In this document: piece after piece, positions 1-20,000 of the stretch
How positions within the stretch are numbered: position 1 is the stretch's first letter
Layout of the letters: every line of letters begins with the position of its first letter
DNA from: Psammoneis japonica
Taxonomy: Eukaryota
NCBI GenBank assembly: GCA_008632985.1
Contig: QPGO01000168.1
Coordinates: forward strand, 114,436-134,435
Length of the DNA stretch: 20,000 bases
Direction of reading: 5' to 3'
Made by a program: the position numbers and the translations under genes
The notes under the pieces: generated by a model
Databases searched by the model: none
What the model saw: only the letters and a program-made list of their open reading frames with translations
What the model was told of the DNA's origin: nothing

Positions 1-241
1 CAACATTTTCTTAAATGGGTTGATGGTTTGTCTTGAAAAGACACAATTGAGACAAAATGAAACAGTTGGCAATGAACAGGACAAAAACATTGTAAAATTC
101 AGCAATGAAATGATTGATGTCATTTGTGCACAACATGTGCTTTGGCGATGTCCTTTCAACAAGTGTTGCATTGAACAAAATTTGGTGAGCTTTTGTCATG
201 GCCAAAAATTTCTGTGACAAATTTTGTTGTGTGTGATTTGT

Positions 242-270
242 CACGACACGACACGACATGACACGACTCA
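242..270. repeat. Short pentamer tandem repeat (CACGA)n, about 5-6 units
   Basis: Sequence reads cacgacacgacacgacatgacacgactca; one unit shows CG->TG. Confidence 0.8.
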
Positions 271-1021
271 CAAAATGAACACCCACAGTGCACGATGAGG
301 ACTCATCTTGTTTGCCAGTTGTCTCTTGTGCACGATGATGATGAATCAACATGTTGATGTGATGCGGCCTGTTCTGGTGGAATTGGGAGGAACAAGCTTT
401 TCCATCAAAGTGTCTGCATTGACATCAGCAATGTGTGGTTCTGCTGTGGCCTCAGCCTGTGCTGCAGATGCCTCATGGCTTGCATTTGTGTGTTGCACAA
501 CAATGCATGACAAAAAGATCCACTGCATTCTGCACATGAGATGCATGGAAGGGAGGAAAAAACATGACTGTTCAATCTGCCATGTTTTGTCAGCCATGCG
601 TGGTTCTGCTTTTGCCTTGGCCATTCTCCAGCCACCTTGTGATTTGTGTTTGTAATGACATGACACAAGAACAGCACTTTTTTGATGACCGATCTGTTGT
701 GGTGCCAGCCACACCTCACCTTGTTTTGTGATGTGGGTGACATTCAATCAACAGCATCAACTGCACTGACTTGTGTCATGATTGACTGGTGAATTCCATC
801 ATAAAATGGATTCGAGTGTGCCATTGTGTGCTTGCCACTTTTGTTTGTTGCAGTCTGTAGTCATCTGGATGGAGCCGGCATTGTCAGTGCATGGCTCCGC
901 AGGGCCCCAGTGTGCAAGTGCATGGGTGGTTTGGCAAAACACACTTTGTTCTGTGAGCTGGTCACTTCTGAATGTTGCAATTTTTTGTGACATCAACATG
1001 TGATGTGCTGCATGGCAAATG

Positions 1022-1199
1022 TCCATTTGTTGGCATTTGTCTGCTTTTGTCAGGTTCTGTCTGCTTTTGTCAGCATTTGTTGCATGCTGTCAGTGTTTGT
1101 CAGCATTTGTGTGTGCAGACAGAGTTTGTCGGCATTTGTCACATGCTGACGGAGTTTGTCAGCATTTGTTGCATGCTGACAGAGTTTGTTGCATTTGTT
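1022..1199. repeat. Imperfect ~30-bp tandem repeat with internal palindrome (GTCAGCAT...ATGCTGAC), possibly a transposon subterminal array
   Basis: Units start at 1071, 1101, 1130 and 1160 (consensus cagcatttgtNNcatgctgacagagtttgt), with degenerate partial units at 1022-1070. Confidence 0.8.
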
Positions 1200-1259
1200 G
1201 GGCGTGTGACAAAATTGCCAAAAAATCATTCAATGTGCTTGTCTTTGCCAATGGCCAAT

Positions 1260-2990
1260 TTCATCATTCATTGCTTGGGTTGACAGCATGTTTGTGAAGG
1301 AGACACGGCATCACCAATTAAATGACAAGTTTTGTCTTGTTAATTGCCAACAATTGAAATTTGTTCAAGTGCATTTTTTCCAACAAATCATCCAACTCAT
1401 TTGTGGGAATGTTGCAATTGGTGACAAAATGCCATGTGTCCCTGGAGGGGGTTTGTGCATGAGCAGGGACAAGTTGCAGTGCACTGGCACCAAAAATGTC
1501 TCTCAGCAATGAATGTGCAGACAACTGCCAACAGAAAAAGAGGCAATTTTGCAAATGTGTGCATTCCTCCACACTTGAAGCACCTCATTTCTGCTTTGCC
1601 CAGGTGTGCATTCTTCAGACATCAGAGATCACACCCAGCTCATTTTTGTTGTTGCAAGGGGCACAATGAAAAGCCTTTGGTTTTGCAAGGCAGGGAGCAT
1701 GAGACAATTTTGTAGAAGATCACATGCAGAAAACTCTGACATTGCAGCCCAGTGGTGCAACATCTCACCAAGAGCTGGAACATGTCAAAACACAAGCAGC
1801 CAACTTTGAAAATTGCTTTTGGCAGAAAATGTGACCCACAATCACACTCCCAGCATTCAGGAGCAGAGACTTTCACAGATGCAGACAATTTTGCACTGCA
1901 CAGATTTCTGTGCAACAAGTGTGCAGGGCATTTTTGCATGGCTTCTCATGCAACCTCCAACCTCTGACTCCCTCAAGTGTTTGACATGCCACCTGTGGTC
2001 TTTTGTGTCAAATCAGTCAAAAGACACAAGCACTGGCATGAGTGGAGTTGGTGCTCTGATCATTGCATTCAAGTTTTTGTTGTTGGTGTGCCATTGTGAC
2101 AGTTCATTTGGTTGGAGCAGATTTTTCAGGTCTTTTTGGGATGTTGTCAGATGTGCTTCTCAATGTGCTGATGGCAAGAGTTGGCTCCACCACATTGTTT
2201 TTGTTTGTTTTGGTGTGTTTGTTGACATGGGAGGAGCTGGCACAAGTGTCATGGTGCTCACATCCTTTCTTGATGTTTGTTTGAGCAAGGAGTTTTTTGA
2301 CTTGGCTGTCATCCACACATGCCAGCATGGTGTTAATCTCAGATGCCAAGTTGCACAGCACATTTCATGAGTTTTGTTGATTTTTCAACCTTTTTGTGAA
2401 ATGCATTTTGAGCTGACTTGGATCAACCAAAAGCATTTTGAAATCTGGGAGGGACAAACAGCTCAGACACTGATGCTGATGCCAAGGTCAACATGTGCAA
2501 GGTCATGTGTGTGGACCTTGGTGTGAATTTTTTGCATGCAATGACAGGAGTCATTGTGGCTCTCAGAGTCATGGCACAGAAATTGTGCAAAAAGAGTGCC
2601 AGAAACAAACGCTGTCAGTTTGTCCACCCATCCGCACATGAATGTCAACTTCTCGGGAGATCAATTGAAATGCCATCTGCTCAAAGGCACTGCTCTTTGC
2701 CATGCATCAAAATGCCTTTGACCAAATGGCATTTCAGCTGAGAGTTCCCGCAAAGTCAGCAGCTCCAATCACCCTCTCACATGGCATTGTGCACATTTCT
2801 GCATGATTTGGCATTTTTTTCTCATCCAAAATGTCAGCTGTGACTCTCACAACATTTTTGAATGACTCCTGTTGATCTGTCGGTGTCTGAGCACTTTCTT
2901 CACTCTGAATGCTGGGTGGGAGTGGACACAGGCCTCTGGCAAATCCTTGAAGCAGACAAAGCAGATGAGCCCTTTCAGTTTTCAAAAATC
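1260..2990 (-). pseudogene. Degenerate coding remnant of unknown identity, probably transposon-derived
   Basis: A chain of protein-like minus-strand fragments (e.g. NIPTNELDDLLEKMHLNKFQLLAINK, HFLPKAIFKVG, MRCFKCGG, ESFKNVVRVTADILDEKK) is broken by frameshifts and stops. No family is confidently recognised. Confidence 0.3.
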
Positions 2991-3219
2991 AGCCAAACCA
3001 TGGAACTGCAGAGCACAACAAAATGCACAGCATTCCATGTCTGTGCTTTGCTGTGTTGCAAATCAAAATCATGTGTTGTGAAAGCATGGCAAAAAGCACA
3101 AAAGGTGGACAGCATGCAGTGTGATGCTGTGCATTGTCAGAAACATGGCATGATTGTGCAACTCAAAACTTTTGCTCATTGCAGTGTTGTCAAAATTTTT
3201 TGACAATCCTCATTTTGCC

Positions 3220-3960: not shown

Positions 3961-4185
3961 CTCTCTGCGCAAAGCACAGCTGACTTCTTTCTTCAGCACC
4001 TTGCTGGCATTCACAGTGCTGTGCCAGAAATGTCAGGAAAGGCAGGGATGTTTGCACAACTCTGTGGCTGGAAACAAAACAGGGGGGAACATGGACGAGA
4101 CATTGAGTTGCTTGATGAGTGTTCTTGTTTGGCACTTGTTGAATGCCAAATGGAGATCACTGAACTTTCAACAAAGAAAATGGGC

Positions 4186-4330
4186 AGTTGTTGGCAATTT
4201 TGCAGCAGCGACCGCGGCATTCAGCATCGGATCACATGAAGTGGTTGACACTTTCAACTTTCCACTCATCTCTTGGACAAACAACTTTTGGCAGAGCAGC
4301 TGTGCTCGCACTTGAGAGGCTTTTTTTTAA
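4186..4330 (+). repeat. Diverged, TA-depleted direct copy of the sequence at ~6275-6392 upstream of the glycosyltransferase gene
   Basis: 4225-4255 matches 6316-6346 at 27/31, and 4299-4323 matches 6359-6383 at 21/25 (manual alignment). Confidence 0.85.
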
Positions 4331-4486
4331 GGATGGATCTACGTGCTGCGGTCTGTTTTTTGGGAGCTCATAATTTTCACAAAAATGGCCCAGATGCATC
4401 GCAGCAAATGCACGCGCGTTCGCAAAAAAAAAAAATCAGCGATCGGTCGAACTTTGTCCGTTTGCCAGACACCCTAGAATGCTTGA

Positions 4487-5850: not shown

Positions 5851-5914
5851 TTAAACGACAGGTACGACCATGCGCGAGTTTTACCTTAACGACTGGAGAT
5901 ATGTCTATAGCCAG

Positions 5915-6040
5915 TCAAATGCCACTTATCGGCATTTCCCGGAAAGTTACCGCTAATCTCCCATAAGAAGCCCGATTTTTTTGAAAATTAGCGGTTTTTT
6001 CGACCTGACAACAGGGCACAGGTCGATAAGTGGCATTTGA
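5915..6040. repeat. Nested inverted repeats (perfect 17-bp outer stem)
   Basis: tcaaatgccacttatcg (5915-5931) pairs with cgataagtggcatttga (6024-6040). Inner pairs are accgctaat (5949-5957)/attagcggt (5987-5995) and tcgacctg/caggtcga (6000-6026). Confidence 0.85.
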
Positions 6041-6458
6041 AGCGCCAAATGTGCAGCTCTTATAGCCGTCTAACAGCCCCTATGAGGGTTTGACGAACGC
6101 ACAAGTGTTCGGGGGTGTTCCGAGGCAGGTCAAAATAACACGGTGAAGTGCGGGAAATGCGAGCTGTTTTAAATTAGACAGCAGCACAAAGAAAATAGCT
6201 CTAGCTACTAAGTCAATTGTCAGTAATTTCGTAGTGCCGGTGGCGTCGGATCATGAAGTTAAATGAAGAGGCGATTGTAGTAATTTTTCGTTGCACCGCG
6301 CTTGATAACATCTATCATCGGATCATGAGAAGTAGTTGACACTTTCCTCTAGAGCCCTGCTGTACTCGTACTCGAGAGACTTTCTTCTCAAGCAGTCAAA
6401 GTGTTGCTCTACAAGTGTTATCAAGACAATTCTACAACGTTAAGATCATTTTCCTTCC

Positions 6459-7499
6459 ATGAAATTTTCGAAGATTGGCATCTCGGTTTTGTCATTTTCT
6501 CTGCTGGTGGTGGGTTGGACTAGCAAAGAAGCCCCTCAATTGAAAGGAAAGCAACTCGAAGTGACCGAAGAAAAGTCAGAACCTGCCACGGGCTTTGTTC
6601 ATTACAAAACGACACGGAGCTCTGGCTGGAATAACCAGCGCGAGGGTGCCATGATGGCTTGGATGGTTGCCTACTTTACGGGACACACGCTTGAGCTTAA
6701 ACCGTTCCATCCAGCTAACACCGGTGTCCTACCGGATCAAGGAGGATACAAGCATGGTGACCTGTGGAATCTTTCTTGTTTGGAAAAGCATGTCCAAGTG
6801 CGAAATATTCCCAGCAACAAAACGTCAGAAGGATATGATTACAATGTCAGCAGATCAAGTGTCTTCGCCAACTACTCAGAAGTACAGGCTTTGAAAAAAT
6901 ATAACAAAATCACCTATAATGGAGGCTGGGCATGCATCATTCGTGCCTTCCCATGGCTTAATCCATCACAAGAGGTGTTCTCCCATCTGATGAATTCCTT
7001 CTCCTACAACTTCGACATTCAGAGATCAGCAGATTTGGTGTTGGAAAGAATTGGTCGGCCCTACGTTGGTTTGCACATTCGAAAAGATAGATTTCCAGCA
7101 ACCAACTGTTCTGCATTGGGTCTTAACGTCAGTTCCGCGGAGGAATCCAAATTCAATTTGAGACGTTGCAAGGGATTGAACTGGACCAACGTTGTCGACA
7201 GAATGTTTCCGAATCTTGATGATGATTACCCGATCTACATTGCTCATGACAGCAGTAGCAGGATGGATCCAACCCTACTTGGCCGGAATTTTCTGCAGTC
7301 GTTTGACTTTGACTTTGTCCGCCAGCTAAGACCTGCAATCCTGTCTGCTGTGGAACAAGAAGTCATGATTCGTGCGGAGTATTTTATTCCATCTATGTAT
7401 TCTACGTGGAGTGAATATGCAGTCTTCAAGCGAGCCGTTGCAGGCAAAGCTGATGGAATGCAAAACTATCAGCACTGGAAGGCCGAGATCTGCCATTGA
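6459..7499 (+). CDS. GDP-fucose protein O-fucosyltransferase-family (O-FucT-like, GT-B) glycosyltransferase, 346 aa, with N-terminal signal/anchor
   Basis: The ORF is long, has normal Tyr content and a hydrophobic N-terminus. It carries SGWNNQRE (cf. G-x-N-N-Q-R), YVGLHIRKD (cf. H-x-R), IYIAHD and AVEQEVMIRAEYFIPSMYSTWS (cf. D/E-Q-x-I/V...F...S-T-F-S) in the canonical order. Confidence 0.8.
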   Translation: MKFSKIGISVLSFSLLVVGWTSKEAPQLKGKQLEVTEEKSEPATGFVHYKTTRSSGWNNQREGAMMAWMVAYFTGHTLELKPFHPANTGVLPDQGGYKHGDLWNLSCLEKHVQVRNIPSNKTSEGYDYNVSRSSVFANYSEVQALKKYNKITYNGGWACIIRAFPWLNPSQEVFSHLMNSFSYNFDIQRSADLVLERIGRPYVGLHIRKDRFPATNCSALGLNVSSAEESKFNLRRCKGLNWTNVVDRMFPNLDDDYPIYIAHDSSSRMDPTLLGRNFLQSFDFDFVRQLRPAILSAVEQEVMIRAEYFIPSMYSTWSEYAVFKRAVAGKADGMQNYQHWKAEICH

Positions 7500-7660
7500 T
7501 GCGCCAATGTTTTGGTTCGTGATGGGTGTCGGCTCTCCAATGCCAGGCGAATATAAAATTGAGGTTCCAAAATCTTGTACCTTTGGCGGTCTGAATGACA
7601 TTGACAGTGATCAGGTCCGTGCACAAACAGGTTAAGCTAGTAATACCTTGCACTAAAGTG

Positions 7661-7855
7661 TGTTCTAGATATTGTGAGAGATTCTGAGCTAGTCTCAGAA
7701 TCGAAGCTATGGTGGAAATCGGAGGATTTCGAGAGGTTAGCTAAACTCTGCGGAACTGCCGATGATTTTCATCACAAACTGACTGGCAGATATGACATCT
7801 TCAATCATGAGGTTCCAATGTCAAAAGGGAATGTGGAATCCCTGTCACCCCCCTT
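7661..7855 (-). mobile_element. Polypurine tract (7848-7855) and putative 3' LTR of the copia element
   Basis: The minus strand reads ttcAAGGGGGG-TGacagg just after the RNase H end. The LTR starts TG at 7847, and a candidate ...ctagaaCA end lies at 7661 (end position uncertain). Confidence 0.45.
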
Positions 7856-9783
7856 GAACCGAATGAGGGAAGATGTTGAAAGCAAGTTGTGAGAGCATGT
7901 GAGCTGGAAGATGCCAAAGAGCACGACCAACCATCACCCAGATCTTGTTGGCACTTTGGGTCTTGGCAGTGCAGTCAGTCGGTTGACTTTCTGCAGGGAC
8001 CCATGCAAGAAGGTGATGACCAAGTGTTGACCTTCTCAGAGATGCATCGAAAACGTTGCTGGATGTGTTGGGTTCGTTGGGTCTGTTGGTCATTTTGGGC
8101 CATTTGAACAGCTGCCAGTTGTCCAACATGGTGATGCTTGGGGTTGTAGACAGATGTTGAGAGTCAATGGAACAGTTGCAAGTGACAAGGCAGGAAAAAT
8201 CACAGGCCAGCATTTGCAGGTGGGCAACAACCATGGCTCCAGCGCATGCACCCATCCATTCAGATTCAGCGGTGGACATTGCGGCAGGGGTTGGGACAGC
8301 AGAGTTGGCTTCTGCAATTGCCCCATTGAAGAAAGCCACAAATCCAATGGCCAATTTTGCAGTGTCAGGGAAATCTTGCCAGCTGGCATCAGTGAAAACA
8401 ACAAACTCAGAATGGCTCATGTTGTGTGCCTCACAAATCATGTGAATTGGACTTGCAGTCAGATCAGAGCAGAATTTGATGGCAAGGTCTTGATGTTTGT
8501 GAAGATGACCAAAAAAATGTGCAAGAGCATCAAAGTTTTTCATGCCCGGGTTGGTGCAGGCCTTGGCGAGTTTGCAGATGATCTGTGCAATGTCGGCTTG
8601 GGTGTTGTGGGCAAGACAGAGGATGGAGCAGACGGCGGAGCAGAAATGAAGGCCAAAGCACTTGGTTGCAATGACCTTGACATCTGTTTCATCCTTGGCA
8701 ATCAAAAATTCAGAGAGCTCAGCAAGCAGACCACCAGAGGCCACTGCAAACAGTGCCATGTGTCCCTTTCTTGAGGTGGAGAGGGACACCAAAATGTTTG
8801 GCACATTCAGGGAAGTGCTGCTTGAGGATCAGGTTGAAGCAGACAAAGAGATGGCTGCAAGCAGGAGCTTGGAGGCAAGTGCCAACAAAATCACCATTCT
8901 TGATGCATTGTTTGGCCTGAGCAGTGAAAGCAAGGAATGGTTTGATGGCATGGGACGATGCGTTCAGGGACCAATTTTCATCGTGGGAGGACTGGCATTG
9001 CATGTTGCTGCATGCACAGTGGCAAGCTTTGAGTTTCTCCAAGGAGCCATTGGACTTCTCCTTGGTGTGGAGAGCAAGGGTGGCGCTGATGATTTTGTCA
9101 TCGGGGCAAGGACATTCGTGGAGAGTGCAGGTCTTGTTGTCCACAATGAGGTTTTTAAGCTCAGAGCATGCAGTGCACAGCTGTGCATCATGAGCTGCAG
9201 GAGGTTGTCTGAGAATGGCTTGGAAAGAACAAGGGACAGGCAAGCAGTCATCATTTGGCACAGACAAGGTGGCTTGGACAGCTTCCAGAGCCCGCTGCAA
9301 TGGATCAGGGCACTGGCACCAATTGCAGTTGATCCACGGGGATGCAACTGATGATGCGCTGCAGGCTTGCTCCTTTCAATAGAGTCATTGAACAGGACTT
9401 GCTCAAGACAATCAGCTGTGGGTTTGGAGGATGCAGCACAGATGTTTTCTTTGTCAGCAAAGTGCACAGCAGTGTGGGTGCCAGCATTGGAGCAAGTGGA
9501 GTGATGCAGGACAGGAGGGACAGGGTTGTCTGGGGGGGTTGAAGTGTCGGAATCGGAGTTGTTGCCATCCGGCTGGGGTGCAGTAGTTTCCAGAGAGGTG
9601 TCGGATTGATCGACAGTGAGGAAACCCTTGACAGTGCCTGCATGCTTGTCAGTGGGTGTGTCGTCATGGTTGGTGAGGCTGGAGGCATCATTGGAGATGG
9701 ATCAGATGGGGAGTGTGCCCAAAAAAGAGACATGATCATGCACCAAAGAAGATTTGAAGCATTCGTCAAAATTGACATCATGT
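7856..9783 (-). mobile_element. Degenerate Ty1/copia retrotransposon pol fragment (integrase C-terminal tail, linker, RT, RNase H), resembling diatom CoDi-type elements
   Basis: Motifs in order: HDVNFDECF (post-integrase DVxFDE), HHSTCSNAG (RRSTR), ELKNL...LEKLKACHCA, DFVGTCLQAP, LKKGTHG, SAVCSILCLAHNTQADIA, VFTDASWQDFPDT, AMSTAESE, LAWVPAESQ. Confidence 0.9.
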
Positions 9784-11935
9784 CCTCTTCTGAATCAGCA
9801 CCATTGTTGTTCACAGAACAGTCTGTCTTGCATGGAGTGTTGGTTCCCTTGTCAATGGATTCTAACTCATCCGGAAATTGCCCTCTGTCAGGATCACATT
9901 CCAAGGAGGATTGTCTTCATCTTCCTCACCAAAGCAAGAGATGCGCACCTCATGACCATCCTTCCTTGGCAGCAACAGACAAAAGACAAAGGCCATTCCC
10001 ACCCAGTGATGAGAGTTTAGAAAGGTCAGTGACACGGTGCTGCCTTTGAAATTGGTGTGCAAAAAGGCAGAATTGCAAAGGGAGTGGTGGCTGCTGAACA
10101 TGTTTTCCACAAGTCTGTCAACCTCACTTCTGATGGAGTTGGTCATGCTGTCTACAAACACACCTGTCTCTCTTTTCAGAGTTCCATTTTCAAACAGGTG
10201 CATCATGTTGCTGGCAGTGGAAAGGATGACCCCAAATGGTTTCTCTCTGAAGTCAGCATGAAGCAAGCAGTTGGTTGCAAAATTGTGTTGCCTCATGTGG
10301 TGCAACTGTTCCTCCTGGTGATTCCCTCTCTTTGTCATCAAGACTGTTGTCATTGGCCTTGCCCTGAACAAGCAACAAATCACAAGCACGGACCAGCTTG
10401 CATTCTTTCCAAAGGTCATCCAGCTCATTGCATCCTGTCATGCAAAAACAGGAACACCTTTGGTGGCAGTTCTTTGTGCCAAGGCAGTCACTGCTCTTTG
10501 CGTCCCCGTTGATTGGGATTGTTGTGGGAATCACACAAAGGCAGTGGATTTTGTCTCTGCATTGGACACAACACCGAAAGCTGCCACACTCCATTGTGTC
10601 AAGCAGTGGCTGAAGTGTCATCTTTAAAACCTTGTGACAGCCACACAGACTTTGCCTCTTCTCCAACTTGTGCATTGGGCTGCTGCTCGGCTGCCAATGA
10701 TGACATTTTTTCCAAGCCAGGAATGTGTCCAAGAACTCTCCACTTTGCCTTGTTGCACCACTTTTTGAAGGCAACATGTGCCAATGTCACTGTCACGGGA
10801 TCTCTGCAAGAAGATCCCATGGAAGCTGTTTTTGTTCTGTTTGTCAACACAAACTGCCAAACACTCCAGGAACTGTTTTTGTGGATCCTTGACTCCAGCC
10901 AAGTGCGTGCTCCTGTGCCACTCTCCAGCCAAAACACATTTGTCATTGATTCCCTTGGCAACATGCATGCCAAAAAGACAAGTTGGGTCCACAAGATTGC
11001 TTTTGTCTGCCCATGTGCAAGTGTCCAACATGTGTGATTGCCACACATCTTCAAAGTTTCAATGTGGTGCCATCGCTGTTTTCTCACCAAGTTCCCCTCT
11101 GGCATTTTCCAGGTTGACTGTGCCAGGAAACGACTTGGAAAGTTTGTCCATCAGTTTGCTCTGACAGGGCATTTTTGTTCCCAGCTTGATTGTGCTGCCA
11201 CAGTGCCTTTTGACAAATCCAACAATGTCATTGCACAAGTGCAGCGGCACTCTGCAATCATCTGTCAGCTTGCACAGCTCTGCACAGGCACGTTCAGGAT
11301 GCTCAGCAATGGCAAACCAGCAAAGGCAACCTTGGCAGGGTGTTGGCATGCCTTGCCCAATCTGCTGTCATCCCCAAGAAAAACATGTCCCCTTGAAATG
11401 ATGTCAATTTGTTCCTCTGTGCATCAGCAACAACTCCATGGTTGTGTCTGGCAATGCACCAAAGGAGTTGGCTTCTTACTTGCTGCTTTCCTCCAAAAGC
11501 ATCTACAGTGACATAAAATGATTCTCCTCTTTGTCACAAATGGAGAAGAGGGGGGAAATGTTGTCTTCAAATGCTGGTGACCACAATGCATCACTGTGGT
11601 CTGCTGCCCCAGCAGAAGACCCAGAATGGATTTTGGTGCCAGAGGCTCCTTGTCACAAGTGCCTCAATCCAGGTGCAGAGGAGTCATTTGATGATGATGA
11701 CAAATCAAATTTCCTGGGATCTCCATCATGAACATTTGCATTCCCAGAGGTGCTGCTGCAACCAAAACAAGGAAGAGCCAACCACATCTTGATGTGGCAA
11801 GTTTGCGATTTTGCAAGTGACAGAAAGGCACTGTGGACCATGATCCAAGTGGCTGAGCATGGGTCAGAATGACTGTTTGCAACAAGGACAGGCAAACTCC
11901 TCTTGCTCATCATGTTTGGACTGAAGAGTGTCCAT
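9784..11935 (-). pseudogene. Plavaka-like DNA-transposon transposase pseudogene, truncated at the C-terminus
   Basis: ATG at 11935 is followed by a zinc-finger-like FACPCCKQSF*PMLSHLDHGPQC. Then come VPLHLCNDIV, GEWHRST...FL...VCVDK, DPVTVTL...KWRVLGHIPGL, CHKVLKMTLQPL, INGDAKSSDCL, PFGVILSTASNMMHLFENG and FLHTNFKGSTVSLTFL. Reading H/C as former Y, these resemble Plavaka motifs as I recall them. There are many frameshifts. Confidence 0.7.
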
Positions 11936-12344
11936 TTTGCAGCAAGAACGAATTTTGATTTTGCCCAAAACAAAAGCAGAGTCCAATTCTCATTAAGTTT
12001 GGTGGTGTGTGGGGTGTGTGTGGTGGTGGGAAACAAAGAAACAAGACACAAAAATGGCACACAAACACAGTTCATTAGTTTCTTTGCATTGATGAATGCT
12101 CTTGTAGTTTCCTGCAAAATGCATGCATTTGGATCATTGAACAATTCCGGAACAAACAATTGATGACAAAGTTGATGTCATCAATGGAAAGGAAACAGCA
12201 AGTTTCAAATGGATGTTCAGTGTGAGATCTAATTGGCGCTCACTGTCAATTTGATTCCATGATGAACTGCAATGCACTCAGGAAAAAACCTTTGCTCTTC
12301 CACTTCCGTTGGTGCAGTGGGTTCAACACATCAACAACAACAGC

Positions 12345-13680
12345 CATGGCACAATGAATCAACAAGTGGTCTGAAGTGAACAATGAAGTTGGTTGTCCCC
12401 AAAACAACATGTTGCTGGCATGCTGACTTGACAACTGCTGGGAGAGATTTGCAGAGCTGAGCAGATTGACCAAAGAGAGAAGAGAAAAAATGACAGAGGC
12501 AGACTGTCATGCAGCAGAAGAAAAGCTGCGGCACTGGTTGGGCATGGAGAGGAAGGATCACTCTTGTGACCCGCACCTGCAACATGACTGCCTTGACATG
12601 CTTTGTTTGTTTAGATCTTACACTGTTCTCTTGATGAGTGACCTGGACAAAGAAGAGCCAATTGACAAGGGAATGTGGAAGGAACTGTGGGAAAGCAAAC
12701 ACCGGACTGCTGAGCCAACAATCAAGGGAGTGTGGAAGGAACTGTGAAAAAACAAATGCCGGACTGTGAGCACAGTGTGGGAGGACATGCAGGAATGGAG
12801 CAGCAAAGCATGTGAGCACATGCATGCCACCCAAGGCATCTTCTCCATGGATGAGACAACGATGAGCACATGGGTGTGATCATTGAGCACACCAGGAATG
12901 TGCACAGATCCAAGCAGCATTGAAACTCAACAGCAACACACCCGGACAGGCAAGGAGAACTGCTCTGTGTCAACAGCTGGGTGCACTGCAGTTGCAAGAA
13001 AGAGATGTTGGATGGATTGGCCACTGGATCCAGGGGGGACAACATGCATTCAGCCATGGACAAGCAAGACATTGATGCATTGAGAGAGATGTCAACCATC
13101 AGCTTGCCCACCCCCATGGAATGGACCACAACAGGAGGTGCAGACTGCTGGCATTGGGCAGCAGTTTTGGAGGTGTTTGCTTGCTTGTGATGGACAAGAA
13201 GGGTGTCACATTTGATGCCATGAAGCTGGCAGATTTGTTCAAGTGCAAAATCATGCATGACACACCCTCAAGGTTGTGGCAGTGTGATGAAATTGGAGTT
13301 CTTTGAATTGACCCTGCAGAGGGTCAATGGTTGGATGTTGGTGGAGATCATTGAGAGAATGAACCTGGGTGATGATTGCAAATGTGATTGTGAAGATAAG
13401 AAGGAGAAACAACAGCGCAGATGTGAGCACAAAGAGAAGAAAGAAAAGATCCATTGTGAACTCATCAAGCATTTTGTCAGTTGATCGCATGACTGATTGC
13501 TCTCACAGTGGAAGGTGCAGCAATTTTGTCATTGCTCATTTGGAGGAAGATGCCATGGAAGAATTGGATTGGATGCCAAGTGCGTGGTGCCAACTGGAGC
13601 TTGGAACTGCTGGGAAGGATGTGTGCATGCAGTCAGTTCATGCCGGAAGAAAATGCTTTTACAGGTGTTGAGGTTCACGC
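12345..13680 (+). pseudogene. Degenerate ORF of unknown function, divergent from the transposase
   Basis: Protein-like, charged helical fragments (WERFAELSRLTKERREKMTEAD, DIDALREMSTISLP, ELIKHFVS) are interrupted by stops and frameshifts. Confidence 0.4.
12655..12771 (+). repeat. 57-bp in-frame tandem duplication (EPIDKGMWKELWESKHRTA / EPTIKGVWKEL*KNKCRTV)
   Basis: Units start at 12655 and 12712. Confidence 0.9.
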
Positions 13681-13999
13681 GTGCACTTAGATCAGTTTAA
13701 AAAAAAATGAACATCAGCAACAAATTCAAACATTGAAATTTCAACCACATTTTTAATTGTTGTTTGAACTGAACATTTGATTGCTGAATTTGCAACAAAG
13801 AAAAATGACAATGGTGCATTCAATGAGAAACTTGCACATTTCTGTTTGTGATTGTGTTGGAATGTCAAGGTGGTTAAAATCAAGAAGCACTGAGAGGAGC
13901 ATCACATGTTGAGTGTCAAGAGAGAGGTTTGAAATTTTTGCAATGGCAGTCTTCCTGATGCACTGTTGCACAACATGATTGCAACAACACAGGCAGTTG

Positions 14000-15132
14000 A
14001 AACAAAACATTGCAACCGGCAAAGGCAATGGCAAGGAAGGAGAATGCAAGGAAGGAGAGTTTGATGGCAGATGACACACCAAACAGCCCAAGACCAACAG
14101 CAGTGTTGCAGTGGGTGGGAGCTGCTGGTGGAAAAGGTGGCACGGAGAGAGCTCTTCCCAAACAAAGCAAAATTCTCAGTGAAGGCAGACATGGCAAGTG
14201 GTGTTGTCATGGCCAATGCATGAAAACACAGCTGATGGCAAGTTCAGCAAATGAGAGCTGGCAGGATCATGGGAAGACTGGGCAAAGAAGTGCATCCTCA
14301 GTGCAATCAGCATGAACAAAAGGAACACTGTGACACAGATGACAATGAAGAGTGTGACAAGTGGCAAGTGCTGCAGGTTGCATTTCTAAGACAACATTGG
14401 GTGTGGCGCTGCCAACAAGGCTCTTGTTTTGCTGCAGTGGCGATGGTGGAAGAACAAGCCAAGGAAATGGGTGGGAGGAAGAAACCACCAAAGAGAGCAA
14501 AAAAAGCAAGAGGAGCAACAAGGTCCAAGCAGATGTTGAAAAACTGTTTGTGGTGACTTGGGAGGATGAGACAGTGGAAAACATTGTGCTTGAGAAGTGC
14601 GCAAACAAGGAGGCATGCACCTGGTTCTATGGCAATGTTCTAAAATTCACAAAGAGCACTGCAATGTGGAGAAAGATGGTGCAGTCCGGCAGCACCAAGG
14701 CTGCAGTGCTGGCTGCAGCAAGCAACAAGGCACTGGTGCTGTTGACATTGGAAAACTGCTGGAAGGTTTAGGAGCACAAGGTCACATGAGAAGGAAAGGA
14801 CAAAGGGAGCAAAGAGGAGGAGAAGGAAACAAAACCAGCGCCCTTGCACACAGACCCAATGCAACAATGTGACTCTTGGAAGGATGAAGGAACAAAGCAA
14901 TTCAATGCAAAAAAAGGGAGAGCAAAGACAAAGGAAAAAGGGCAGAACCACCAAAAAACCGGTGGAGAAGGAGACAAAAACACAAGCAACAACAGAGATT
15001 TTCAGCAACAACAAGGATGACGAAGACAAAACAGAAAAACCTGGTGACAGAAAAGATGAGGAGGAAGACAAAGAGAGCAAAGAAGAAGATGATGATGCCA
15101 AACAAAGAGCAACTGCAGCATGGGCCTGTTGA
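14000..15132 (+). pseudogene. Degenerate transposon accessory ORF with acidic C-terminal tail
   Basis: WFYGNVLKF...MWRK...SNKALVLLTLENCWKV is followed by ALCTD...SWKDEGTKQFN. This resembles the S-D-E-A-x-x-L-L-x-L-E-N / Y-T...W-x-x-x-G-x-x-x-F-N pattern I recall from ORFs beside large DNA-transposon transposases in algae and fungi. The end is D/E/K-rich. Confidence 0.5.
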
Positions 15133-15539
15133 AAATTAAAAACGGCTGCACAAAATCAGCGCTCATTGACAATCCATGTGAGCTGGCAAAAGTTGTGATG
15201 CATTGTTCATTGAGGAATGTGTTTAAAAATTCATTGCACAGTTGATGTTGAATGCAAAAATTGCCACGCACAATGTGGAAAAACAAATGCTGTTGATTGT
15301 CAAGTTCCATGCATTGAAAAAAAGCGCGCACATTGACAGTGAAAGAAGGGAGGCTGTTTGACTGTCAATTGTGATTTCCACAGCTAAGATGAGAGCTCCA
15401 CAGCAAACATCAACTGTCTTTCACAGTCAACCAATTGTTGCCAGCTGCGCAACTGATGAGGTTTGAAACTGTAAAAATGACACCCATGACAGGAATGAAA
15501 ATTGCTGTGAGAAAGATGGTGTCAATCACTGTGTTGCAT

Positions 15540-15832
15540 GCTCTGATGATGTGATGCAGACCCAAGCCACTCTCATCTCTGTGAAGACAACAATGCCTCC
15601 CTTGTGATGGCCTCTGCCAGTCAACCCACTTGCGGCACCCAACACATTGACACCCAACACTTTGACATCCAACACTTTGCTCTTCAAGGTTGGGCAGAAC
15701 AAGATCTTGTGTGATTGGACTGAGTGGACACCACAGCCAACTGCAGTGATGAACTCACAAAGAACTGTGCCAGGACACTCTTCTGTTGGCACCTGGACAC
15801 ACTCACTGGCTGTCGCTGACCAGCGCATGTTC
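15540..15832 (+). mobile_element. Second Ty1/copia fragment: RNase H C-terminus
   Basis: The frame reads LCEDNNASLVMASASQPTCGTQHID...IQHFALQGWAEQDLV*LD*VDTTANCSDELTKNCARTLFCWHLDTLTG, matching the copia YEDN...RTRHIDIK.F...N.AD.LTK pattern. Confidence 0.9.
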
Positions 15833-15919
15833 TGCGCAGCAGCAAAGACCACTCACAGCACTGTTTTCCAGTCAAACAGTGCTCCTCCTCTCACCAGGGT
15901 GCTGCTTTTCCTGGTGTGA

Positions 15920-18081
15920 GGGCATTTCAGTGGAGTGGTCATTCCCATGTGCAAACAGTGAATCACTCTCACAAAATGACAGCCACTCTTCCTCCATGAC
16001 CTGCAACTCCTTTGCCAAGACCTTGCTTCAAAACAAGCACTTCTTGTCATTTGGACATGTGCAGAGAGAGCAGTGCCCTGACCCCTGTGGTGTCAAACAA
16101 GTCCATCTCAATGCTGTCTTGTTGAATTTGTGGCAACTGACCGTGGCTGGAAGTCTTGCTGCATTTGTGATGTGTGGACTGCTTCAACACAACAGAAGTG
16201 CATGCCGCCATGCACTTTTGCCAGAACACACAGCAACATGTGTTGTTGTTCATGCACACCACCATGGCCTTTTTTCACTGTTCATTGTTGTTCCCAGAGA
16301 GAAGCACATGCATCAGGGTTGCGCTCCAATTTGATGGCAGCTGCCAAGAGTGCATGCCAGATGCAGACCATTTTGGGTTTTTTGTGGATGATGCAGCGTG
16401 TCTCTGAGATGTTCCTTGCACCATGATTGAGGTTGGTCTGCACAATTTGTTGCAAACGACAACTGAATCCAAGCAACATCAAGACAAAACTTTGTCTCAT
16501 CATGGACACCCAACCATGGCAACAAGAAATTGCCACAGTCACTGGTGACATGGCTGTGTCTTTGTCACAATGTGAAGCAACCAACAACATTTGTGTGGTG
16601 TCCTTGGCATGTCCAGTCCAGCATGCAGTGGTGGCATTCCTTGGGAGACCAAGTCATGTCAACCACAAGCCACTGCACTCATCCATCTGTGTCTCCCCCC
16701 TGCCCCGACCGGACCAGAGACTGATGGGTGAGACAAAGTTGGGGTTTGGGGTTGACCACTTTCAAAATGACCAAATTGGCAAGTGGTCTTTGCACACAAA
16801 ATGGCACCCAATGACTTTTGAAGGCTTTGGGACTTGTCACAAATCACTTGGCAAAGATTGCCTTGGTCGTTGTTGGGTTGGGATGCCATTGACTCTTGGC
16901 CAATTGACTGGCCATTTCCACATTTTGAGGTCATCAATCTCAAACAACAGAGCAACAGTTGTTTTTGTCTTTCAATTGTTCACCTCCATCTGTGTGCATG
17001 ATGTGGCACTTCCATTCTGTTGAGATGATGGATTTTCAAATTTTTGTGCTTTTTTGCACATGCTTGCTTTCAAACTGGCTGGAAATCATGCACGATGCAG
17101 TGGACAACTCTGACCCCTTTGTCTCAGCATCTGACAAGGACAGTCAAGCAGCGCAATCTTGGATTGTTGCCACACATTGTCAAAAATCAATGTCCAAACA
17201 TTGTGACCTTCAACTGCAATGCCTTGCACAGTCATTTGCAGCAGAAGCCTGAGAGCCATCTTGGAGCCCTCTTGTGTGCCTGAAGCAGCCAAGGAACTCA
17301 TTCAATGCCAATGACATGCCCTTCATTTTCATTCCATCAAGTTTCTTCCTAAAACAAAGCAGTTGTTGTCACTCCAGACAGAACCACACCACAGACCCAG
17401 GTGTCTCTGCAGTCAAAGTTGCTTGTTGACAACTGGGTTCTCAGTTGCTCTCCCTTGCAGCTTGTGCACAGTTGTTGTGTTGTTGCACAAAACTGGGAAC
17501 TGAGTTGTTTGTGTTCTCTGATTGATTTTTGGAGTTCTCTTGTCAATGAAACCCACAACAGGGACAAGAAAGTTGATGGTGCATGTCTCTCTTCTTGGAG
17601 CCACATGAAACAGACCCCCCTGCCTTTTCCTCACAATTCCTTAAGACAATGGACTCAACTTGTGAGACACAGGCTGACCTTGCTCAACAACTGTCAATCA
17701 TCATCAACTCCAAATCATCCAGAGAAACACCTTCCTTTTGGCTCAACTCCCTCAAAAAAGCCAACAGTGCCATTGGTCTCTTTCATCTCCACATCTGCTT
17801 GTTGAGATTCACCATCAGAGGGCCCATTTCTGCTGAGGGCACATGTGCCATGAGTTGCTTTGCCATTGATTGCAACAGCTGCTTGACCGGCAATTGCAGT
17901 GACCACCACAGTGCGCTTTGTGAAAGGCACCCCAAGCTCCTTGCAGAATTTTTTGCATGCTGTGACACTGTCAATCACAGTGCTTTTGCCTGAACCTCTG
18001 GTGCTGGCAAGAAAACAAAGCAGCTGACCTCCACCCTGAGACCCAATTGGTTTGTTCTAAATCCCTTTTCACACTGCTCAA
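15920..18081 (+). mobile_element. Highly degenerate non-LTR retrotransposon remnant (RT followed by an RNase H-like segment)
   Basis: Ordered fragments are TK*QPLFLHD, NSFAKTL...REQ...HLNAVLL, DCFNT, GFFVDDA (Y/FxDD) and NIKTKL, then FVSASD..SWIVAT...QSFAAEA (RNase H-like SDGS...SxRAE). Confidence 0.5.
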
Positions 18082-18576
18082 NNNNNNNNNNNNNNNNNNN
18101 NNNNNNNNNNNNNNNNNNNNNNNNNNNNNNNNNNNNNNNNNNNNNNNNNNNNNNNNNNNNNNNNNNNNNNNNNNNNNNNNNNNNNNNNNNNNNNNNNNNN
18201 NNNNNNNNNNNNNNNNNNNNNNNNNNNNNNNNNNNNNNNNNNNNNNNNNNNNNNNNNNNNNNNNNNNNNNNNNNNNNNNNNNNNNNNNNNNNNNNNNNNN
18301 NNNNNNNNNNNNNNNNNNNNNNNNNNNNNNNNNNNNNNNNNNNNNNNNNNNNNNNNNNNNNNNNNNNNNNNNNNNNNNNNNNNNNNNNNNNNNNNNNNNN
18401 NNNNNNNNNNNNNNNNNNNNNNNNNNNNNNNNNNNNNNNNNNNNNNNNNNNNNNNNNNNNNNNNNNNNNNNNNNNNNNNNNNNNNNNNNNNNNNNNNNNN
18501 NNNNNNNNNNNNNNNNNNNNNNNNNNNNNNNNNNNNNNNNNNNNNNNNNNNNNNNNNNNNNNNNNNNNNNNNNNNN
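18082..18576. other. Assembly gap (N run)
   Basis: Ns. Confidence 1.
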
Positions 18577-18849
18577 CCCTGCCTGACTCTTGTTGGGTCC
18601 TTCTTTGTCATCTGTTTGAAGGGGCTCTGCATCTTGCTCCAACAGATCATGTGGCCCACCTGCATTCAAGCTGTTCCAACAGTCACGCAGATCATGCAGA
18701 AGTTGCTGATGCCAATCATTGATCTTCCCAGACTGAGCATGGTGTTTAAAAGCTGCAACATGGCTCCCATTCTCTTGGAGGTCATCTGCAGATTGGAGCT
18801 GTGCAAACAACAGCAACACTCTCTGTGTGCACTGTTCCATGGCTTGATG

Positions 18850-19350
18850 NNNNNNNNNNNNNNNNNNNNNNNNNNNNNNNNNNNNNNNNNNNNNNNNNNN
18901 NNNNNNNNNNNNNNNNNNNNNNNNNNNNNNNNNNNNNNNNNNNNNNNNNNNNNNNNNNNNNNNNNNNNNNNNNNNNNNNNNNNNNNNNNNNNNNNNNNNN
19001 NNNNNNNNNNNNNNNNNNNNNNNNNNNNNNNNNNNNNNNNNNNNNNNNNNNNNNNNNNNNNNNNNNNNNNNNNNNNNNNNNNNNNNNNNNNNNNNNNNNN
19101 NNNNNNNNNNNNNNNNNNNNNNNNNNNNNNNNNNNNNNNNNNNNNNNNNNNNNNNNNNNNNNNNNNNNNNNNNNNNNNNNNNNNNNNNNNNNNNNNNNNN
19201 NNNNNNNNNNNNNNNNNNNNNNNNNNNNNNNNNNNNNNNNNNNNNNNNNNNNNNNNNNNNNNNNNNNNNNNNNNNNNNNNNNNNNNNNNNNNNNNNNNNN
19301 NNNNNNNNNNNNNNNNNNNNNNNNNNNNNNNNNNNNNNNNNNNNNNNNNN
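18850..19350. other. Assembly gap (N run)
   Basis: Ns. Confidence 1.
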
Positions 19351-20000
19351 GTGAAGTGGGGAGAGGGGGTGAAAAGTGCAAAACCATGTTGTTCTGCAAA
19401 ACACGTGCTTTGTGCAAAAACACCCCATTTGGCTCACTGCCCTGTGTCTTGTGCAGAATCCCATGCAGCAGGCATTTGTCATGCACTCAACGGTCATGTT
19501 TGATGAAGGATCAAAACCAGAAAGAACCCAGAAGTGAACATTCACTGTCAGCGCAAATGATTTGAATGTGCAAACATCAGAAACAAATTGCTTGACTGGA
19601 CTGTCGAAAGCACCATGATGACCCAGCCACTGCTTGTCACCAGGACATTTTACAAAACAGGGGTGTTTCACACATTTCATCAATCTGGGGTGAAAGTGGT
19701 GTCAGGGGCACTGCCCAATGTGTGAAATTAATTCAGCATGCCCCTGTCAAATGTTTTGCTGTGCATGTTGCATCTCATGATTGACCATCATGCCCAGAGA
19801 GCTTGTGCCGCTTTTGTGTTGCAGGTTTCTTAAATCTTGATCCGTGCATGGCTCTGGATGTCCAGGATTGGGACAGCTGGGCTGGCATGTGATTGGCATG
19901 TCGTCAAAACAATGAAAACCTGTTGTCAAAACTGCATCATCGCAGACCTTCATTGTGCAGCTGCCGCATCTCAAGATTCAGGATCACAGAGCTGCTTCAA

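Follow-up and report, generated by a model that had tools for sequence, protein, structure and literature searches.

The transposable element (TE)-derived DNA of the window, the whole 20,000-nt stretch analysed here, has very probably undergone DNA-level hypermutation of TpA to TpG or CpA. Over the full window, TA was observed 148 times against 1188.6 expected (observed/expected, o/e, 0.125) and CG 292 times against 902.2 (o/e 0.324). TG (2065 against 1077.8; o/e 1.92) and CA (1968 against 995.0; o/e 1.98) were in excess, and these counts bear out the scarcity of CG and abundance of TG and CA noted in a preliminary description of this DNA. Since TA and CG are both lost, both palindromic YpR dinucleotides collapse onto TG/CA. 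The direction, dinucleotide specificity and strand symmetry of the change, its sharp boundaries and the sparing of a host gene are demonstrated in the window, as is a loss of TA that can be separated from that of CG. The preliminary description knew of no described mechanism for such a change, but the same TpA-only A->G/T->C hypermutation is reported in mutation-accumulation lines of Bigelowiella natans by Mettrop et al. (bioRxiv 10.64898/2026.01.13.699255). Given this match, the signature of the window is genuine and out of the ordinary, yet a description of it is already in print.

Dinucleotide depletion and the spared island

TA o/e in the TE-derived tracts was 0.036-0.086, with a TpA frequency of 0.0028-0.0059 and a CA o/e of 1.7-2.2. 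The features of the window are listed below, with the strand where one was assigned.

1..3219: tract A, unclassified repeat-derived DNA; TA o/e 0.036, CG 0.143, TG 1.89, CA 2.22; 9 TAs
3961..4327: TA- and CG-depleted tract beside an assembly gap; TA 0 against 25.6 expected, CG 7 against 20.3
4328..4482: left part of the unedited multi-copy repeat R2, the insertion target of the TIR element; TA 4 against 11.0, CG 11 against 8.4
4483..4486: left target-site duplication TTGA (TTAA with a TpA->TpG change); the right copy and an empty-site contig read TTAA
4487..5850: non-autonomous terminal inverted repeat (TIR) DNA transposon of 1.36 kb, TA-poor but CG-normal; terminal inverted repeat of about 19 bp
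5851..6458: right TTAA copy and unedited upstream region; 5851 to about 6315 is multi-copy R2, with normal TA and CG
6459..7499, plus strand: intact O-fucosyltransferase-family gene, 346-aa ORF; Pfam PF10250, E 3.4e-8, above its cut-off
7792..18081: tract D, degraded TE remnants; TA o/e 0.048, CG 0.162, TG 1.84, CA 1.83
7848..9243, minus strand: Ty1/copia pol remnant (reverse transcriptase end and RNase H), hypermutated; 327-aa ORF at 7848-8828
15577..15774, plus strand: second, weaker copia RNase H remnant; two tblastn HSPs, E 2e-5 and 6e-5
19351..20000: tract E, TA- and CG-depleted; TA o/e 0.065, CG 0.254

The "about ten" TAs estimated by eye in the first 3.2 kb correspond to a count of 9 over 1-3219, and the like scarcity described over 7.8-20 kb to 38 TAs over 7792-20000. 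Tract D held 34 TAs, compared with 714.8 +/- 19.1 (minimum 659) in 500 mononucleotide shuffles, and its TA deficit of 681 exceeded its CG deficit of 477. When the combined TA and CG deficit was set against the combined TG and CA excess by segment, the values were 375 vs 409, 1158 vs 1066 and 125 vs 128, a near balance. Strand asymmetry, measured as (TG-CA)/(TG+CA), ranged from -0.05 to 0.18 per kb; TG and CA o/e in tract D were 1.84 and 1.83, as the claim of transitions on both strands of TE-derived DNA would have it. Stop trinucleotides on both strands of tract D comprised 522 TGA, 36 TAA and 19 TAG. The loss of TA is mutational, not compositional. Residual TA was biased to TTAA.

No Pfam domain was found among ORFs of at least 90 aa in tract A or on the strands and ranges scanned in tract D. 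The inverted arms of tract A (1-86 and 1414-1330) were 76% alike.

TA and CG o/e were 0.086 and 0.70 over 3961-5577, and 0.56 and 0.87 over 5578-7791. The island at 5851-7791 contained 88 TAs against 145.5 expected, with ordinary TA density from 5852 onward. The O-fucosyltransferase ORF within it (fTA 0.034, fCG 0.038) had 6 homologues, the best at 50% identity, and matched one read contig exactly; a second contig, at 108 differences from it, is paralogue-like. This gene is spared by both the TA- and the CG-loss processes. R2 is present in many copies, as measured by a summed depth of 2745 over 5845-6315 and by position 5981, which 20 contigs cover; 5851..6458 matched neither a tRNA nor an Rfam family.

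Ancestral states in the TIR element and the copia remnant

The TIR element with its left target-site duplication (4483-5850) contained 8 TAs against 84.9 expected and 67 CGs against 86.0. TA loss is separable from CG loss, as this element lost TA and kept CG. An empty-site contig (depth 172) joined 4482 to 5851, a junction at which two letters fit both sides of the joint. The right target-site duplication at 5851-5854 reads TTAA, and the TpA->TpG change in the left duplication is an in-situ change at a site, one only, of known ancestry. The TA switch points at 4327/4328 and 5850/5851 are structural junctions in the reads, with a read contig showing a loose end at 4327.

Summed contig depth over the TIR element was 524-1638 compared with a base depth of about 57. 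Other copies had CA for TG, or the reverse, at the adjacent positions 4800-4801, 4808-4809 and 5013-5014, and 6 such CA<->TG swaps were present among the 40 contig-vs-window differences listed; these swaps are independent hits in different copies. Differences between copies were mostly transitions (A>G 310, G>A 287, C>T 236, T>C 257), with 48-63 of each transversion type.

The 327-aa ORF at 7848-8828 had 417 homologues at E<=1e-3, and RVT_2 lay directly upstream of the matched part in all 6 of the long homologues scanned. Judged by these homologues, the remnant at 7848-9243 is Ty1/copia, with an RVT_2-type reverse transcriptase followed by RNase H. The window copy, too degraded, gave no Pfam match, and no LTR pair was found for it.

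Codon-level evidence comes from this one copia remnant, with 8 conserved Tyr columns and 8 TA sites. The ORF contains no Tyr, compared with 4.0% in its homologues. Tyr was kept at none of the 8 columns, which now read TGY (three), CAT (three), TGG (one) and TTT (one), compared with retention of 134 of 207 other residues, a difference with a Fisher p of 3e-4. Among 52 aligned relatives, 8 within-codon sites have TA in at least half; the window reads TG at six of these sites, CA at one, TT at one and TA at none; TG-majority sites of the same alignment were kept at 10 of 13. None of 80 related copia loci had a TA o/e below 0.3 (median 0.71, minimum 0.45). Conserved Arg was kept at 2 of 15 columns, and 11 of the 13 changes were to TGC, CAY or CAA, in agreement with the earlier reading of Arg codons as Cys, His or Gln. 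Editing of TA destroys every Tyr codon and every TAA or TAG stop, and alters TA-containing codons for Ile, Leu and Val.

The individual examples first offered for Tyr loss fared differently. The His codon (CAT) of LKKGTHG aligned to Tyr in 12 of 12 homologues, upholding the change from LKKGxYG, but CEDN does not represent a loss from YEDN, as Cys was present in both homologues aligned there. The proposal that unrelated element classes were hit holds for the Ty1/copia remnant and the TTAA TIR DNA transposon, but the Plavaka and non-LTR elements also named were not verified. The Plavaka/KDZ assignment (about 9.6-11.3 kb, minus strand) lacked support: three frames were scanned without a Pfam family reaching E<=0.05, and of 3685 candidates for the frame with the supposed LGYIP->LGHIP change, none was a homologue at E<=1e-3. 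Non-LTR identity had no Pfam support in the ORFs, strands and ranges scanned.

The proposed process and its alternatives

We propose that the TE-derived DNA was run almost to completion from TpA to TpG or CpA, by A->G change on either strand. The hypermutation would be directed at particular sequences, foreign or mobile, and would end within a few bases of their termini, and it is probably the process measured in the B. natans lines. A second, slower and separable process of CpG->TpG/CpA would have emptied the older tracts of CG. Two integrated viral regions of the B. natans lines had 231 single-nucleotide mutations, of which 230 were A->G or T->C, all on TpA, and the rate was about 6e-7 (10.64898/2026.01.13.699255). 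A de novo rate about 1000-fold above background in propagating lines would be expected of a process of this type. The preprint proposes a genome-defence role and, as a hypothesis, an ADAT2-like deaminase. Following that hypothesis, the lesion in the window could be enzymatic adenine deamination in DNA by an ADAT2/TadA-like enzyme, an assignment that we make tentatively. No deaminase gene was found within the 20,000-nt window.

The function may be the inactivation of invading DNA, and the targeting may follow an epigenetic or small-RNA address and not copy number. The initial description of the process as repeat-targeted oversimplifies: multi-copy R2 is unedited and some edited stretches are now near single-copy. 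Summed depth over edited 15736-16677 was 63-74 compared with a base of about 57, where depth reports present copy number and not that at the time of editing. Since R2 is unedited though the younger insert within it is edited, the model requires an address signal that is unexplained. The A->G process first proposed is sustained as to its TpA context, but an A->G lesion is indistinguishable here from T->C because TpA is palindromic.

A lesion on thymine is therefore to be weighed, in which T in TpA is modified or oxidised by an enzyme, TET/JBP-like or other, to a base such as 5-hydroxymethyl- or 5-formyl-uracil that mispairs with G and gives T->C. G can be misincorporated opposite oxidised thymines, and TpA is the preferred site of T modification in some protists; we know of no T-modifying enzyme or base of this kind in the lineage. 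A TA->CA change is TA->TG on the other strand, and neither the window nor the reported B. natans results separate the two lesions. The ADAT2-like candidate of the preprint, with residues linked to DNA editing, argues against modified thymine (10.64898/2026.01.13.699255), and we consider that origin unlikely.

Editing of elements in transit, with single-stranded or extrachromosomal intermediates (cDNA, an excised transposon or a replicating virus) hit before integration, much as APOBEC3 hits retroviral cDNA, would deliver copies already TA-poor. Such a course is in keeping with the change of TA state exactly at element ends, with the editing of the younger insert at 4487-5850 but not of the older multi-copy sequence around it, and with the independence of CA<->TG choices between copies. 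However, the left target-site duplication, which is host DNA made at insertion, carries a TA->TG change, albeit at one site only. Further, the viral DNA in which the new B. natans mutations appeared under clonal propagation was integrated, present as a single copy and silent in transcription (10.64898/2026.01.13.699255). Editing before integration is therefore improbable, and in-situ editing of DNA is preferred.

Another route would begin with A-to-I editing of element RNA by an ADAR- or ADAT-type enzyme, the edited RNA then being reverse transcribed and re-inserted. It would fit a copia element among the targets and the 5' U preference typical of A-to-I RNA editors, discussed in the preprint, whose substrates are nevertheless integrated DNA viruses (10.64898/2026.01.13.699255). 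This route is contradicted by the equal depletion of the TIR DNA transposon and of non-coding ends, by TG and CA excesses that are symmetric and not confined to the sense strand, by conserved Tyr replaced by Cys at 3 columns and by His at 3, and by the change in the target-site duplication, and has very little probability.

TA is mildly under-represented in most genomes, and the CG deficit does add to the TG/CA excess. An absence of hypermutation, with elements intrinsically TA-poor through foreign origin or selection against TA, or with CpG decay alone, is nonetheless contradicted by the loss of all 8 Tyr columns, the replacement of TA by TG or CA at 7 of 8 sites, the lack of TA-poor loci among the 80 copia relatives, the larger deficit of TA than of CG in tract D and the loss of TA without CG in the TIR element, and can be set aside with near certainty.

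As to a check of the assembled bases against reads, contigs from public runs match the TA-poor stretches, but the platform is not independent, because the runs may derive from the assembly's own sample. Contigs at a depth of about 55-58 differed from the window at 5 positions over 8077-9585, 7 over 12762-13941 and 7 over 15092-16366, and had ordinary TA density in the gene island adjoining the depleted tracts. A sequencing or assembly artefact, such as systematic miscalls at a modified base, might be suspected from the assembly gaps in the depleted tracts and from the possibly shared sample, but it is extremely unlikely given only 5-7 differences per 1.2-1.5 kb of depleted tract with normal TA next door, and it would not place in-frame Cys or His at conserved Tyr solely inside TEs.

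Relation to known systems

CpG->TpG/CpA is the classical outcome of 5-methylcytosine deamination. CpG decay accounts for the CG deficit (o/e 0.14-0.16 in tracts A and D) and for Arg->Cys/His/Gln, and also yields TG/CA products, but it cannot remove TA, and the TIR element lost TA without CG loss. The CG loss would be 5-methylcytosine-driven by analogy only, because CpG loss is absent from the main text of the B. natans preprint and 210 of 211 mutations in its NCLDV region were at A/T (10.64898/2026.01.13.699255).

Fungal RIP converts C to T, mostly at CpA, and creates TpA (RIPCAL abstract). The logic is shared: dinucleotide-specific transitions confined to mobile or duplicated DNA, missense and nonsense saturation, and sharp edges. 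The chemistry and direction are opposite, with TA at an o/e of 0.036-0.086 and CA at 1.7-2.2 here. A RIP reading of the window was rejected, as RIP would raise TpA in affected repeats and TpA is destroyed here. The trigger of RIP is duplication; this does not seem to be so here, with R2 multi-copy and unedited and the reported B. natans substrate single-copy. The first account was correct in separating TA loss from CpG decay and in placing it in the reverse direction to RIP.

APOBEC3 edits C, on retroviral cDNA, and ADAR edits RNA (dsRNA). Like the proposed process, these systems and ADAT2 hypermutate invading nucleic acid through the deamination of bases, and A-to-I editors commonly prefer a 5' U or T. 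We know of no biochemical demonstration of a natural genome defence in which an adenine deaminase acts on chromosomal DNA. Amphioxus ADAT2 edits DNA, which shows that DNA can be a substrate of a tRNA adenosine deaminase (PMC10354150).

The closest likeness is to B. natans, in which TpA is the target, TpG and CpA are the products on either strand, foreign DNA is hit and host sequence is spared. Its genome contains 124 TpA-poor, CpA+TpG-rich clusters enriched in TE domains, and RT and DDE domains are over-represented among its low-TpA CDS, whose mean TpA frequency of 0.0018 resembles the 0.0028-0.0059 of the window tracts (10.64898/2026.01.13.699255). The spared island (GC 0.45), with an ORF fTA of 0.034 and fCA+TG of 0.16, compares with B. 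natans CDS means of 0.041 and 0.137. However, the B. natans NCLDV and virophage insertions are partly depleted (Rho 0.45; TpA 3.3% and 9.2%), whereas the substrates in the window are TE remnants close to saturation. The main text of the preprint does not deal with CpG loss, boundaries, the flanking context or unedited repeats, all of which are seen in the window. To the B. natans precedent the window adds TE saturation, boundaries sharp to the base pair, a CpG loss separable from that of TA, residual TA biased to TTAA and a neighbouring multi-copy repeat that is unedited.

Dinucleotide depletion and read support

Across the window, TA was observed 148 times versus 1188.6 expected, an observed/expected ratio (o/e) of 0.125. 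The corresponding ratios were 0.324 for CG, 1.92 for TG and 1.98 for CA. The list of TA positions demonstrated that the scarcity of TA was uneven, with ordinary density at 5852-7791, in an island (~5851-7791; GC 0.45) that adjoins depleted DNA. The preliminary description had claimed a scarcity of TA in the first 3.2 kb and over 7.8-20 kb, and direct counting bore this out, with 9 TAs in 1-3219 and 38 in 7792-20000. The longest depleted tract, 7792-18081, contained 34 TAs, as compared with 714.8 ± 19.1 in 500 shuffled sequences. In their end-state, the depleted tracts have lost ~95% of TA.

Observed/expected ratios of TA and CG by segment of the window
1-3219: TA 0.036; CG 0.143
3961-5577: TA 0.086; CG 0.70
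5578-7791: TA 0.56; CG 0.87
7792-18081: TA 0.048; CG 0.162
19351-20000: TA 0.065; CG 0.254

Conversion of TA and CG into TG and CA predicts that the excess of TG plus CA will approximate the deficit of TA plus CG, as was found in each tract (409 versus 375, 1066 versus 1158 and 128 versus 125). Within 7792-18081, the o/e of TG (1.84) matched that of CA (1.83), and strand asymmetry per kilobase ranged from -0.05 to 0.18. This strand symmetry, together with the presence of a TA-depleted DNA transposon, excludes editing of sense-strand RNA.

To examine whether the assembled bases were supported by reads, a check named in the preliminary description, read contigs from three sequencing runs of one sample were compared with the window over 3961-18081. 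Contigs at a depth of ~55-58 matched the TA-poor DNA with 5 differences over 8077-9585, 7 over 12762-13941 and 7 over 15092-16366, and the same runs also read the TA-rich island adjoining the depleted tracts. These data exclude assembly error, although the runs may derive from the assembly's own sample and so do not constitute a second chemistry.

Three assembly gaps (runs of N) lie in the window, each with DNA depleted of TA and CG on both flanks:
3220-3960
18082-18576
18850-19350

The coding capacity of the depleted tracts was also altered. TGA accounted for 522 of the 577 stop trinucleotides in 7792-18081. The window held 58 open reading frames (ORFs) of at least 100 aa; in this tract many ORFs, 100-330 aa long, overlapped one another across the six frames of the two strands. 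Such overlapping ORFs arise because TAA and TAG are nearly absent, and gene finders could take them for genes. Searches inside the window for long repeats, direct or inverted, and for a pair of long terminal repeats found none. Two local arrays were observed: an array of irregular tandem repeats, ~10 bp in period, at 1016-1198, composed of TTTGTCAGCA-like units in 7 overlapping 65-nt copies, and two tandem 55-nt copies at 12655-12766, 82% alike and 57 bp apart.

Mutational loss of TA in a copia remnant

The following genes and elements were identified in the window:
4487-5850: DNA transposon with terminal inverted repeats (TIRs) of ~19 bp
6459-7499: ORF of 346 aa, O-fucosyltransferase (O-FucT) family, Pfam match
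7848-8828, minus strand: Ty1/copia pol remnant, reverse transcriptase (RT)-end/RNase H part, a 327-aa stop-free ORF extended by tblastn to ~9243
15577-15774, plus strand: second copia remnant, a weak tblastn match

Among 78 ORFs of at least 90 aa, O-FucT alone scored above the Pfam cutoff; its closest relatives were unnamed metagenome proteins, 50% identical. A second, diverged O-FucT copy was present in the reads as a contig matching 6497-7307, with 108 differences and 29 gap positions over ~800 bp, at a depth similar to that of the exact contig.

The copia ORF had 417 homologues. The copia-type RT domain (RVT_2) lay just upstream of the matched part in 6/6 long homologues scanned, which identifies 7848-8828 as the RT-end/RNase H part of Ty1/copia pol. 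No transposon domain was detected in any stretch scanned with profiles, and no Pfam family was found on the plus strand of 12001-18081 or the minus strand of 8800-12600 when stops were read through. Thus, TA-depleted tracts defeat profile-based transposon annotation. The preliminary description had also named a Plavaka element and a non-LTR element. The LGHIP frame on which the former was based had no homologue, and the strand that carries it is the minus strand of 8800-12600; for the latter, no evidence was found. Neither assignment was confirmed.

The copia ORF contained no Tyr in 327 residues, compared with 4.0% Tyr in its 150 best homologues. When 230 conserved codon columns were pooled over 7898-9243, none of the 8 conserved Tyr columns was kept (now 3 TGY Cys, 3 CAT His, 1 TGG and 1 TTT; Fisher P = 3e-4), and only 2 of 15 conserved Arg columns were kept, the 13 changes including 4 TGC, 4 CAY and 3 CAA (Fisher P = 1e-4). 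All other conserved residues combined were kept in 134 of 207 columns. Of the Tyr motifs singled out in the preliminary description, LKKGxYG (LKKGTHG in the window) had Tyr at that position in 12/12 homologues; the change from YEDN to CEDN did not hold, as both homologues aligned there have Cys.

The same direction of change was seen in the DNA. At 8 within-codon sites, TA is the state of half or more of 52 aligned relatives; of these sites, the window has TG at 6, CA at 1 and TT at 1, while 10 of 13 sites with a TG majority among the relatives were kept. The preliminary description had named equally TA-poor intact copies as a refuting observation. Among 80 related copia loci recovered from metagenomes, however, none had a TA o/e below 0.3 (median, 0.71; minimum, 0.45), these relatives belonging to other organisms; close relatives of the copia ORF were not found in metagenome contigs. 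In three of the metagenome loci (L066, L056 and L061), CG was strongly depleted (o/e 0.05-0.37) and TA was ordinary (0.45-0.59); copia elements in other hosts therefore undergo CpG decay without losing TA.

Transitions of all four types made up most of the differences between the window and diverged copies in the reads (A>G, 310; G>A, 287; C>T, 236; T>C, 257), with 48-63 transversions per type. Six adjacent swaps between CA and TG accounted for 12 of the 40 differences listed. Such swaps are the footprint of a single ancestral pyrimidine-purine (YpR) site that was changed on one strand in one copy and on the other strand in another, and separate copies were thus hit independently. Collectively, the protein, the DNA, the relatives and the independent hits in copies demonstrate that TA was lost by mutation.

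Boundaries, order of loss and targeting

The TIR element is inserted in a copy of a noncoding sequence, here termed R2 (4328-4482 plus 5851-~6315), that has normal TA and CG. At 4327/4328, where a read contig has a loose end at 4327, there were 0 TAs in 3961-4327 and 4 in 4328-4482. At 5850/5851, a contig joint, there were 8 TAs in the 1368 bp to the left, and to the right TA recurred at 5852, 5863, 5882 and onwards. The switches in TA state therefore fall on junctions that the reads define independently. Ultraviolet TA photoproducts and GC-biased gene conversion were dismissed by reasoning, since neither is expected to be confined to transposons with base-pair edges.

The empty site of the TIR element was recovered as a contig that joins 4482 directly to 5851 and reads TTAA. 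The flanks of the element in the window read TTGA (left) and TTAA (right); thus, at this single site, the left target-site duplication (TSD) differs from both its right twin and the empty site. Because a TSD is host DNA made at insertion, the ancestral state of this one site is known, and its left TTGA records a change in situ. With regard to timing, the main rival holds that intermediates were edited ahead of integration, and we consider it improbable. A palindrome of GCGGCC(C)ACA / TGTGGGCCGC units was observed inside each end of the element (4515-4588 and 5770-5830), with self-inverted matches 80-88% alike, and these palindromes could form hairpins or double-stranded RNA.

The TIR element had 8 TAs versus 84.9 expected and 67 CGs versus 86.0 expected, whereas older tracts have lost both. 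Loss of TA is thus faster than, or independent of, loss of CG. Among the 55 TAs surviving in 16,167 bp of depleted DNA, 17 lay in a TTAA context, as compared with 10 of 92 in unedited DNA (P = 0.004); the o/e in depleted DNA was 0.01 for ATA/TAT and 0.10 for TTA/TAA. A preference of the editor for certain flanking bases may explain this residue; alternatively, TA may have been re-created from abundant TTG/CAA by ordinary G:C to A:T mutation.

The preliminary description had proposed that the process is repeat targeted. Its confinement to mobile sequences was upheld, but repetition alone did not appear to account for it. R2 is multicopy (summed contig depth 2745 versus a base of ~57; 20 contigs at 5981; depth 172 for the empty-site contig) and unedited, while 15736-16677 is edited at a summed depth of just 63-74. 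R2 gave no tRNA, Rfam or Pfam signal. The TIR element, being inserted in an R2 copy, is younger than that copy, and the O-FucT gene, 600 bp from the edited insert, was untouched. An edited insert within an unedited repeat argues for a sequence-specific guide over copy number or age.

Proposed mechanism and comparison with known systems

Two processes are demonstrated by these data: a strand-symmetric, DNA-level conversion of TpA to TpG or CpA that is confined to particular mobile sequences and stops at their ends, and a separable decay of CpG to TpG or CpA in older tracts. Editing of one A of a TpA would leave no TpA on either strand, so that each site would end as TG or CA and never as CG. 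The predicted coding consequence is the loss of all Tyr codons and of TAA and TAG, which would yield dead elements and many long spurious ORFs. In the window, the transposon end-state is one without Tyr codons and with TGA as nearly the sole stop. A DNA-acting adenine deaminase is the most likely editor, an assignment that we make tentatively; a thymine-side lesion, the main chemical rival, would place the initiating damage on the other base of the dinucleotide and appears unlikely.

Taken together, the observations raise the possibility, which we regard as doubtful, that elements are singled out for editing one by one, to within a few bases, by an address other than copy number or residence time. 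A sequence-specific guide (small RNA or homology) would recruit, first, a chromosomal editor of adenine (or thymine) and, in addition, cytosine methylation, with CpG being lost from edited tracts at a later stage. The result would be a two-step YpR collapse defense in which a flanking-base preference leaves TTAA. Edges sharp to the base pair, a young edited insert in a repeat that is itself unedited, TA loss that comes before CG loss and can be separated from it, and TTAA-enriched survivors offer handles on targeting and on the enzyme.

Natural chromosomal hypermutation of A:T to G:C specific to TpA would represent a new type of eukaryotic genome defense, and it drives sequence GC-ward, against the usual mutation bias. 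The process was first published in 2026, by Mettrop et al., for two viral insertions in Bigelowiella natans, one from a nucleocytoplasmic large DNA virus (NCLDV) and one from a virophage (bioRxiv 10.64898/2026.01.13.699255). According to that preprint, 231 of 302 nuclear single-nucleotide mutations in 15 mutation accumulation lines fell in the two viral regions, and 230 of these 231 were A to G or T to C, all at TpA and with TpG or CpA as the product; per site and generation the rate came to ~6e-7, and mutations were confined to some of the lines. It also reports 324 coding sequences (CDS) low in TpA, at a mean frequency of 0.0018, among which DDE endonuclease and reverse transcriptase domains are enriched, and 124 genomic clusters of 1-kb windows poor in TpA and rich in CpA and TpG. 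Transposable elements are described there as "potentially" reached, with no more said, and the available main text makes no mention of CpG, copia, flanking context, boundaries or small RNAs (bioRxiv 10.64898/2026.01.13.699255). A keyword search of the literature for TpA-specific hypermutation returned no other report.

The interpretation in the preliminary description was thus anticipated and is otherwise largely right. Its statement that no mechanism had been described has been overtaken: the phenomenon and its reading as genome defense are already in print, with an enzyme that is hypothetical so far (bioRxiv 10.64898/2026.01.13.699255). What the window contributes is a new set of near-saturated targets, copia and TIR elements, of a process whose kind was already known, along with testable details: the edges, the timing with respect to CpG loss, the survival of TTAA and the repeat left unedited. 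The composition of the window is compatible with an origin in B. natans, which we consider likely; any other origin would make the system more widespread than a single species. Compared with the CDS means given in the preprint, ORF TA frequency was 0.034 versus 0.041 and CA plus TG frequency was 0.16 versus 0.137; the depleted tracts had TA frequencies of 0.0028-0.0059 versus 0.0018 in its low-TpA CDS. The preprint compares the process with fungal repeat-induced point mutation (RIP) and proposes DNA adenine deamination by an ADAT2-like protein (bioRxiv 10.64898/2026.01.13.699255). TpA hypermutation is like RIP in its logic but opposite in its chemistry.
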